IMG/VR virus record: IMGVR_UViG_3300037851_000141
Span: 96,001 to 160,000 of that record
From: a virus
Lineage: Duplodnaviria; Caudoviricetes
Length of the DNA: 64,000 bases
Strand: one strand, 5' to 3'
The notes under the pieces are model-generated. The model was not told where the DNA came from, did no database searches, and was given only the letters and a program-made list of their open reading frames with translations. The translations under genes and the position numbers were made by a program. Shown one piece after another: positions 15,479 through 17,355 of this stretch (position 1 is its first letter; the number at the start of each line of letters is the position of its first letter).

Positions 15479-16006
15479 ATGAATAATGAACAAGACCTCG
15501 TAACAAACTTAATCAAGGAACATATTAATATACACGAACAAGAACGTATAACAGATCAAAAAGAAAAAGATGAAATATTAAAAACTCTCATTATAGACAA
15601 CATTATCGATATAAGTCCTGAAAATGAATCAAATTTCAATCATTTAGAAAAAGTGTGTTGTGAGAAAATTAAACAACTTGATTCTATGCCGAATGTAAAT
15701 CCTTGCGAAATTAGTGAAGAGTTCTGTTCTTTAATGGAAAATATGAGAAATACATCAATGAAACGTTTAAACAGAATTGTTGATCGTTCTATGAAGTTAT
15801 CAATTCCATTAAAACAATATGACCAATTTTTAGATATTCTTGGACATTTAGATCCAGATTTCAAAGAGCAAATTAATAAAATATCTTATTATCCTGATAA
15901 ACAAAAAGAATATATTGACGATTACGTTTCATCAAAATTTTCAATGATTTTCGACAAACTGAACATGTTTGCCAAATTTTTAGACCTGTTGAAAAAAGAT
16001 AGTTGA
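15479..16006 (+). CDS. Hypothetical protein
   Basis: 175-aa ORF with AAGGA RBS and a TGATATAAT promoter upstream. Confidence 0.65.
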   Translation: MNNEQDLVTNLIKEHINIHEQERITDQKEKDEILKTLIIDNIIDISPENESNFNHLEKVCCEKIKQLDSMPNVNPCEISEEFCSLMENMRNTSMKRLNRIVDRSMKLSIPLKQYDQFLDILGHLDPDFKEQINKISYYPDKQKEYIDDYVSSKFSMIFDKLNMFAKFLDLLKKDS

Positions 16007-16084
16007 AATCTAAAAATACTTGAGTAGAATGTAACGTCATCAGTAGGTGGTTATTCCACTGAAGTACATATAAGTATAATCAAG

Positions 16085-16400
16085 TAATATCCGTTGAGGT
16101 TTCAGACTACGGTTCCTGCTAAACTCAGTATACACCGTTATGGTCAATATACTGTAAAAAAACCGGGGAAGAGGTCATTGTTAGGTGAGTAATAGCCTCT
16201 AACAATGGCGGGATGAGCGGATACATCTGAGCAATCGTACCTATTACCGACTGAAACATAAGACACCAACAGTCGAAAAATAAATTGGATTCTGCGCGGA
16301 TGGTCACATATTTTCTGATGTAGGAACTTATTTTTTATGTAATAAGTTCTGGTGGGAATATATGTACCAACTCCAATTTTCGGCTAACTTCGCCCCAAGA
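16085..16400 (+). ncRNA. Candidate structured non-coding RNA (strand uncertain)
   Basis: Only long ORF-free gap in the window (16007-16626). Contains at least six stems, some nested. TATAAT at 16075-16080. No known family recognised. Confidence 0.45.
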
Positions 16401-16505
16401 GAAACTTTTAAATTCAAGGCTTCTATGTAGGAATATATAAAAGAGAAACCTTGGTAATAAACTTCAATCTTATAAAATTGTTAAATGAGATTTTAGATAA
16501 GAATA

Positions 16506-16556
16506 AAAAAAGATTTCGACAAAAAAGATAAAATTGATTAAGAAAAAAGATTTCGA
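16506..16556. repeat. Direct repeat AAAAAAGATTTCGA x2 (16506-16519, 16543-16556) in a very A-rich tract
   Basis: Read directly; a partial third copy lies at 16521-16530. Confidence 0.8.
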
Positions 16557-16626
16557 AAAAAATTAAAGAAAAATGAAGGGTCAAATTCTAAACTAATATA
16601 AACAAAGATAGGATATAATAATAAAA

Positions 16627-17355
16627 ATGAAGAAGATTATAAAAGAAGTTAAGTTGTTATTAGAATATAATGAGAGTTTATTTATTGAGAGAGAAAATGA
16701 CCATAAACAAAGATATTTAGCATATCAGATATTAATACAAATAAAAAAGTATATTGAACTAAAAAAATATAAAGAAATAACACTTAAATCTAAATACGAT
16801 AATGTTGTTATTTCTTTAAACGAATTACATATGAATTTAGATATTGTTTTTTCTATTCGCCCACCAGATGAATGTTATGCTGCCTATGGTGATAATGAAG
16901 TTACGAAAAATAAAATGATTCTTATAAATGTAGGTGTCAACGATAGGATTCTTGAACTATATTACAAAAAAGAATACCATAAAATAATAAATGAAAATGA
17001 ACTATCTTTGATTCATGAAATTATACATTATTTAGATGATTTAAGAACAGAAGGTAAATATAGATTATCAAACAATTATAAGTTAAACAGTTATCCAAAC
17101 TATCCTTCGGAATGGAATGCGTATTATCAAGAAGTAGCAAGTCATTACGATACTATAATTAAACAAATACAACAGATATCAGATAAGAATAATAGAATCC
17201 AAGAATTTTATAAACAAATAGGTAGAAGTCCTTTAGATTTGATTAAAAGAATAGTTAAAGATAATGATATAAAGAAAAATTATAAAGAACAATATTATTT
17301 CAAGTTTGTTAAAAGAATCTATCAGTTATATTATGAATTATTTGATTTATTATAA
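16627..17355 (+). CDS. HExxH protein, paralog 3
   Basis: LIHEIIHYLD, YPNYPSEWNAYYQEVA, KRIYQLYYEL. Confidence 0.8.
   Translation: MKKIIKEVKLLLEYNESLFIERENDHKQRYLAYQILIQIKKYIELKKYKEITLKSKYDNVVISLNELHMNLDIVFSIRPPDECYAAYGDNEVTKNKMILINVGVNDRILELYYKKEYHKIINENELSLIHEIIHYLDDLRTEGKYRLSNNYKLNSYPNYPSEWNAYYQEVASHYDTIIKQIQQISDKNNRIQEFYKQIGRSPLDLIKRIVKDNDIKKNYKEQYYFKFVKRIYQLYYELFDLL

Follow-up and report, generated by a model that had tools for sequence, protein, structure and literature searches.

Comparative evidence for a conserved structured RNA next to uvsY and uvsW in uncultured T4-like jumbo phages

Results

Genomic setting of the element

The window analysed here is a stretch of 64,000 nt (positions 96001-160000) from a phage record of 331,849 bp with an estimated completeness of 92%. 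Its gene set includes UvsY, UvsW, a two-domain GT2 glycosyltransferase and ribonucleotide reductase, which therefore marks the phage as a T4-like jumbo phage. Between the GT2 gene and the gene that starts at 16627 (+ strand) are a 175-aa ORF (15479-16006) and, as an earlier note on this DNA had pointed out, a long ORF-free gap: the 620 nt from 16007 to 16626 contain no ORF above 60 aa. The gap holds an element (Table 1) with a G+C content of 0.38-0.43, compared to ~0.25 in its neighbours, which is approximately 1 SD above the genome mean (0.349). The element lies at ~112 kb in the genome and occurs once in its own 332-kb genome.

The product of the 175-aa ORF had no Pfam match, and relatives of the 175-aa and 242-aa flanking proteins were not found in IMG/VR. 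This ORF is missing from the homologous loci, where the RNA directly follows GT2, and its 3' end is changed at 23 of 56 positions in strain X2, whose RNA stays nearly identical. The genome carries 22 tRNA genes clustered at 175,815-265,715, more than 60 kb from the RNA, and lacks tmRNA.

Table 1 Features of the element and its immediate flanks, in window coordinates
Feature	Position	Strand	Remarks
Promoter-like site TTGAAA-16-TAGAAT	16003-16030	+	Best sigma-70-type match, 10/12
TATAAT	16075-16080	+	16 nt 5' of P1; poor -35
P1 hairpin, AGG/CCT	16097-16117	+	Hand-picked stems in relatives
L1, conserved loop, UUUCAGACUACGGUU	16100-16114	+	Family pattern UUUARRACUA..GUU; 13-16 nt
P2 hairpin, CAGTATA/TATACTG	16126-16154	+	Variable insert; missing or different in several members
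J1/3, A-run, then purine-rich conserved linker AAAAAAACCGGGGAAGAG	16155-16173	+	Model consensus AAAAAAaCuCAGuAAGaG
P3 long hairpin, GTCATTGTTAGG/CCTCTAACAATGGC	16174-16209	+	Strands at 16174/16196, with G-U pairs; conserved base (G/A)UCAU...AUGG(C/U); compensatory changes in 9/11 pairs
P4 hairpin, GATG/CATC	16212-16227	+	Compensatory changes in 4/4 pairs
P5 hairpin, CGACTG/CAGTCG	16248-16275	+	96-97% paired; 4-5/6 pairs compensatory
L5, conserved loop, AAACAUAAGACACCAA	16254-16269	+	Invariant core AWAAGRC
Candidate H-type pseudoknot, CCAA (16266-16269, 3' part of L5) / TTGG (16285-16288; UUGG in RNA)	16266-16288	+	Spans A-rich J5/6
3' domain closed by P6, AATTGGA (16283-16289) / TCCAATT (16372-16378)	16283-16378	+	P6 weakly supported; p = 0.04 / 0.19
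P6-region stem, AAATTGGA/TCCAATTT	16282/16372	+	Present as described in the earlier note
P7 mini-hairpin, TCT-GCGC-GGA	16291-16300	+	100% paired; 4/4 pairs compensatory
P8, TGGT-c-ACATAT (16301-16311) / ATATGT-ACCA (16360-16369)	16301-16369	+	85% paired; double changes absent
P9 hairpin, GAACTTATT/AATAAGTTC	16324-16349	+	7/8 pairs compensatory
3' tail, conserved U-run and CMAGARGRRAAYC motif, CUUUU at end	16379-16409	+	X3 similarity stops at 16409
Partial short copy of the 3' part of the RNA, GTAGGAATATAT and AAGAGAAACCTT	16425-16452	+	15 nt past the RNA end

Homologs in a conserved syntenic slot

We gathered relatives through UvsW and GT2 protein searches and found related sequence on the same strand in 11 uncultured phage contigs (L002, L003, L008, L013, L081-L085, L089 and L090), which together with the window make up the family. 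Gene order in the relatives is uvsY-uvsW-GT2 followed by a gene-free gap of ~500 nt, and their GT2 proteins are 39-57% identical to that of the window. The GT2 search listed at least 40 further homologs of 43-50% identity, outside the set analysed here. Shared anchors are a hairpin with the loop A(A/U)AAGRC, a GUCA(C/U)A(U/G)A box 30-36 nt past that hairpin, a (G/A)UCAU...AUGG(C/U) hairpin base, an A-run linker, and a U-run with the CMAGARGRRAAYC tail. As judged from these sequences, no fewer than 12 lineages of uncultured phages keep the RNA in the same syntenic position, immediately 3' of uvsY-uvsW-GT2. A DNA search of the GenBank phage collection returned neither the element nor a close GT2 homolog, and exact scans of IMG/VR with two core patterns gave only contigs that were already known and chance matches.

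Unlike sequence fills the same slot in other phages of the clade (L086-L088, L006, L015 and L018). In L086:4870-5225, L087:4900-5260 and L088:4880-5240, with GT2 proteins 45-48% identical, the slot is occupied by a different conserved non-coding sequence containing CCCCTTAAATGGGG and GGATACGGGTTTCATC..CTCGTCAAAAGAAAATAGTATCA..GTGCTACG, which went undetected by the covariance models R1, R2 and R3 described below. By eye, an A-run can be seen in the 5' half of the L086 sequence, together with two hairpins, a long one that ends in ATGG and one whose loop contains AUAAGA. More distant relatives (L006:6900-7500, L011:6990-7200, L015:1650-2000 and L018:4860-5300) show a sigma-70-like promoter after GT2 and then non-coding sequence unlike the RNA, with ~9 tandem copies of a 20-nt unit in L006 (7238-7395) and ~4 copies of a 48-nt unit in L011.

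Covariation and folding energy

Since plain MAFFT misaligned P3, P4 and P9, alignments were made by Infernal realignment. Three covariance models were used, one of the 3' module with five close members as seeds (R1), one of the 5' module with six seed members (R2), and one rebuilt from ten members (R3). R1 found the non-seed members L085 (43 bits), L089 (37), L090 (32) and L013 (31) at the expected place (E = 4e-8 to 3e-5), and no other match above noise over 235 kb. R2 recovered L013, L008, L082 and L085 (E = 1e-5 to 0.02), while R3 added L089 (E = 0.003) and L084 (E = 0.07).

In the 3' module, 86.3% of helix cells were paired (70.1 ± 2.0 in shuffles), 16 of 25 pairs had changes on both sides, and the covariation score was 0.449, compared to 0.166 when shuffled; slid controls were 31-44% paired with scores of 0.06-0.11. 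Corresponding values for the 5' module were 88.0% paired (64.2 ± 2.3 shuffled), 18 of 21 pairs and a score of 0.563 against 0.191, with slid controls at 32-55% and 0.08-0.14. Compensatory double changes were present in 34 of the 46 pairs of both modules, and 0 of 500 shuffles reached the observed values in either module, although these shuffle statistics overstate significance because the members are related and their alignments had been fitted to the model structure. We nevertheless argue that the covariation signal is real, because the slid controls were low and non-seed members were recovered. P4, P5, P7 and P9 covaried best, and P8 was uninformative because its sequence is conserved. These alignments indicate that the helices of the element are preserved by matching mutations across 12 lineages.

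All of the stems listed in the earlier note are present in the window at the coordinates given there, and comparison with the homologs backs P3, P4, P5, P7, P8 and P9, and P6 more weakly. Two of its pairings fared differently. The CCGT/ACGG stem (16091/16109) recurs in L013 alone, and the conserved helix at that place is instead P1, with AGG/CCT in the window and GGGG/CCCC, CAGAG/CUCUG, UAGUG/CACUA or GUGG/CCAC as equivalents in relatives, all stems that were picked by eye. The long-range pair GTTCCT/AGGAAC (16112/16322) likewise exists in the window but is without counterpart in the relatives.

On the + strand, 16020-16420 folded in RNAfold at -98.4 kcal/mol (z = -1.63), a value matched by 7 of 100 dinucleotide shuffles; the - strand gave z = -0.90. 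The comparison to shuffles that the earlier note had suggested is thus borderline, and its proposal of a new structured phage RNA draws its support from covariation among homologs, not from folding energy. The fold of the single sequence is no better than chance, and non-randomness emerges only from the comparison with the 11 homologs.

A z-score of just -1.6 and a G+C content within ~1 SD of the genome mean would be expected if the element were a non-functional, G+C-richer leftover with chance stems, or a small protein gene, for which a 60-aa ORF on the - strand (16125-16307) could be a candidate. Both are refuted. Compensatory conservation extends across 12 lineages with flanking proteins only 39-57% identical, and in close strains the element, compared to its flanks, is strongly constrained by purifying selection, while the longest ORFs in the members (28-60 aa) are conserved neither in length nor in position.

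A candidate pseudoknot and conserved loops

In members of the family, a segment located 8-12 nt 3' of P5 is complementary to the 3' part of the P5 loop. Besides the window, the strands are AUCCAA/UUGGGU in L003, UCCUA/UAGGG in L083, 9 bp on each side in L085, CUUGAU/AUCAAG in L089, CUCC/GGAG in L090 and GUCAG/CUGAU in L013. Pairing with the member's own partner averaged 5.08 bp, compared to 4.18 bp with the partners of other members (permutation p = 0.002 by length and 0.006 by duplex energy). This pattern suggests a candidate H-type pseudoknot, in which the conserved CAUAAGRC would be loop 1 and the A-rich linker loop 3. P6, which is strong in the window (7-8 bp) and weakly supported family-wide, uses the strand 3' of P5 that the pseudoknot also needs. 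Because the two pairings exclude each other, a conformational switch between them is possible.

Other pairings of the conserved segments were also assessed. A pairing of L1 with the bases before the GUCACAUA box (GACUA/UAGUC) was rejected, being identical in 4-5 members with covariation absent (p = 0.25 / 0.04). L1 with J1/3 gave p = 0.026 / 0.003, with a partner position that was inconsistent among members. We also rejected co-variation of the purine-rich, same-sense motifs of J1/3 and the 3' tail, which had seemed convincing by eye, since own and other members' partners matched equally; the two are simply similar motifs that are conserved. The GUCACAUA box forms the 5' strand of P8; within this helix lie P9 and the conserved, UAGRGG-like J9/8 (16350-16359).

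L1 (UUCAGACUACGG) is similar to the R element, and L5 (AUAAGAC...AGUC) to the S element and J8/7, of the group I intron consensus. T4-like phages carry group I introns, and descent from a group I intron or ribozyme, as a relic or a derivative, could account for both loops. However, neither the window nor eight homologs matched the group I model RF00028 even at E<10, and members such as L002, L003 and L085 lack the would-be P7 pairing between L1 and the segment 3' of L5. That segment covaries instead with the one 5' of L5, with which it forms the local P5, and the element is intergenic, not inside a gene, with its own predicted promoter. A group I origin is largely refuted by these observations, and we consider it very improbable.

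Strand, transcription unit and selection

Helix cells contained 33 G-U and 9 A-C combinations, an excess that places the RNA on the + strand and extends to the whole family the argument from G-U pairs made in the earlier note. Promoter-like sites of at least 10/12 were found 7-85 nt from P1 in 7 of the 12 members (for example TTGAAA-16-TATAAT and TTGATA-17-TATAAT), and most members have a strong sigma-70-type promoter-like site between GT2 and the RNA. The TATAAT at 16075 had been noticed before, and its spacing to P1 matches that of the -10 boxes of L002, L081 and L003 (15-20 nt); the likely promoter set also takes in the upstream TTGAAA-16-TAGAAT. Because these sites are host-type (sigma-70-like), transcription would occur early in infection.

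The gene after the RNA is convergent in at least 9 of the 12 members (L002, L003, L081-L085, L089 and L090). Together with the predicted promoter, this suggests that the element is a stand-alone RNA gene and not a leader. A cis-regulatory role was also considered, in which the element would be a 3' UTR or stabiliser of the GT2 mRNA, a leader or riboswitch of the downstream gene, or an insulator between convergent units. GT2 always precedes the element, but a strong promoter-like site separates the two in most members, as does the 175-aa ORF in the window. Co-transcription with the next gene is possible in principle in the window, where that gene is on the + strand, but not in the members with a convergent neighbour, and no riboswitch family matched the window or eight homologs in Rfam; a riboswitch or 5' leader was rejected on these two grounds. 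We regard a cis-regulatory element as decidedly unlikely.

Similarity to the close relative X3 covers exactly 15992-16409, bracketing the promoter-like site and the CUUUU end. The element placed at 16085-16400 in the earlier note is real, but runs to ~16409 and not to 16400. A counterpart of the partial copy at 16425-16452 also lies 3' of the element in X3. Searches of the window did not find a canonical terminator. Strong hairpins flanked by A-runs and T-runs, similar to bidirectional terminators, occur at L081:2822-2860, L003:9775-9812 and L089:5307-5335, 60-250 nt 3' of the conserved tail and just before the convergent gene, and may be where the primary transcript really ends.

Two near-identical strains keep the element almost unchanged between heavily substituted flanks. 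One of them, X2, differed from the window by 23 substitutions in the 56 nt 5' of the element and by at least 6 in the 32 nt 3' of it, compared to two substitutions within 16071-16464 among the differences listed (at least 38 of 44); the X2 element also shows 1-nt indels in runs and loops. The two substitutions are C>T at 16133, which lengthens P2, and A>G at 16341, by which an A-U pair of P9 becomes G-U; both leave the + strand structure intact. Relative to its flanks, the element is under strong purifying selection in these close strains.

The AT-rich flank and a possible origin of replication

An AT-rich tract with an A- and purine-skewed + strand always lies 3' of the RNA and often contains short direct repeats. 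In the window, 16400-16700 has a GC content of 0.18-0.21, an AT skew of 0.27-0.40 and a GC skew of 0.3-0.67. AAAAAAGATTTCGAMAAAAA occurs twice, 37 nt apart, at 16506-16562 within the tract; it is probably dispersed in the phage genome, because several other contigs of the X2 run match that stretch alone. The cumulative GC skew of the genome has its maximum at position 204,736 and its minimum ~5 kb from the RNA, at window ~11,050 (genome 107,052), the divergent junction just 5' of uvsY.

The main rival to a trans-acting RNA is that the transcript would be the pre-primer of an origin of replication, forming a persistent RNA-DNA hybrid in the AT-rich tract 3' of it, on the model of ColE1 RNA II and of T4 R-loop origins. 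The element is near uvsY and uvsW in every member; in T4, as established by the Kreuzer laboratory, oriF is located at uvsY and origin R-loops are unwound by UvsW. The skew minimum would fit an origin, but it coincides with the switch in gene orientation at uvsY and needs no origin to explain it; in T4-like phages, moreover, skew marks origins only weakly. The purine-skewed tract and its short direct repeats would suit hybrid formation, yet the repeats differ between members, as is ordinary for AT-rich intergenic DNA. Turnover of the RNA sequence within a conserved slot resembles the divergence of primer-RNA regions in plasmids, whereas R-loop priming needs neither invariant loops nor a pseudoknot. 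An antisense promoter of the RNA I type was not found within the element, the interval 16031-16489 being free of promoter-like sites on the - strand, and the same-sense co-variation of J1/3 and tail motifs was unsupported. As each supporting point has a simpler explanation, we consider an origin pre-primer unlikely.

Searches against known RNA families

Rfam 15 (4227 models) gave no match at the gathering threshold in the whole window, in line with the earlier note, which had recognised no family. At E<10, only chance matches of 12-14 bits were present in 15900-16700, and in eight homolog loci nothing matched inside the RNA except a 20.7-bit chance match to a snoRNA. ARAGORN found neither tRNA nor tmRNA in the window. 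An RNA of the T4 rnaC/rnaD type was rejected, as the element is outside the tRNA cluster (112 kb, with the nearest tRNA gene at 175.8 kb). We also rejected a protein sponge of the CsrB/RsmZ type: AAGRC occurred 20 times in the 12 sequences, compared to 8.4 expected, but 12 of these are the single L5 copy and there was no further excess. A search for antisense targets in the phage genome returned only chance matches of 11-15 nt, most of them AT-rich.

Discussion

The comparisons establish that the element is conserved in sequence, helices, strand and synteny, does not code for protein and belongs to no known family. We favour, as the probable explanation, that a stand-alone gene on the + strand at 16081-16409 (possibly from ~16037) encodes a structured non-coding RNA of ~330 nt, which is outside described families and would act in trans through its fold. 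Host-type promoter-like sites would drive an early, stand-alone transcript of the + strand. The fold consists of P1 with a conserved loop, the variable P2 insert, the A-rich and purine-rich linker, the long P3, P4, P5, with a loop that would be pseudoknotted to the A-rich linker that follows, and a 3' domain of P7, P8 with the GUCACAUA box, and P9, closed by P6. Action in trans is suggested because the invariant L1, L5, GUCACAUA box and J9/8 sit on helices that vary freely, and the RNA would most likely be a component of a ribonucleoprotein or a ligand of a host or phage protein. The unlike sequence in the same slot of L086-L088, L006, L015 and L018 fits a cis, locus-bound role at least as well as one in trans. 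A more specific proposal, which we hold only tentatively and think rather doubtful, is a new class of large pseudoknotted early RNA in freshwater T4-like jumbo phages that would be a ribozyme or an essential ribonucleoprotein subunit, with J5/6 possibly switching between the pseudoknot and P6.

Conserved multi-helix, pseudoknotted RNAs of several hundred nucleotides are rare, and those that have been solved are usually ribozymes or the cores of ribonucleoproteins. The RNA described here adds a new example of a large structured RNA, found in a clade of uncultured giant phages, with a clear gene structure, an address fixed near recombination, replication and nucleotide-metabolism genes and with 12 diverse sequences in hand for structure work. 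It also poses a concrete question for phages of the T4 type, namely the role of a non-coding structured RNA, with predicted early expression, beside uvsY and uvsW. If the RNA is instead an origin pre-primer, it would likewise be new, as a structured primer RNA of the ColE1 kind in a T4-like phage. The RNA is of solid interest to specialists in RNA and in phages.

A survey of IMG/VR reported 8,495 structured-RNA candidates (the DNAVirus_X set), with motifs of 29-151 nt (PMC10690425). Those candidates share with our RNA the data source and the covariation in phage intergenic regions, while the text of that paper, which was compared here, does not mention uvsW or a T4-like or jumbo-phage motif. 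As judged by Rfam and by that text, the RNA is a new family.

In overall design, the RNA is similar to GOLLD, ROOL, HEARO, OLE and raiA, which also span several hundred nucleotides, are multi-helix and pseudoknotted, and carry invariant loops and junctions on covarying helices; some of these occur in phages, and comparative genomics revealed all of them before any function was known. In contrast to them, it has no match to their Rfam models, differs in size and helix plan, and is so far confined to one clade of T4-like jumbo phages and one fixed slot. GOLLD and ROOL often adjoin tRNA genes, whereas this RNA is not beside any.

T4 species 1 and 2 stable RNAs (rnaC and rnaD) are, similarly, products of stand-alone genes for small stable RNAs of the T4 type with host-type promoters, which for our RNA are predicted. 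They are ~120-140 nt long and lie in or beside the tRNA/tmRNA cluster, while the RNA described here is ~330 nt long and more than 60 kb from tRNA genes. ColE1 RNA II and the T4 oriF and oriG transcripts resemble it in being promoter-driven, non-coding and 5' of an AT-rich region, RNA II also in being highly structured and oriF in its uvsY/uvsW neighbourhood. Unlike ColE1 RNA II, our RNA is without a promoter for an antisense regulator, and its conserved pseudoknot and loops are without counterpart in RNA II, oriF or oriG. T4 origins use MotA-type middle promoters, whereas the sites beside this RNA look like plain sigma-70 promoters.
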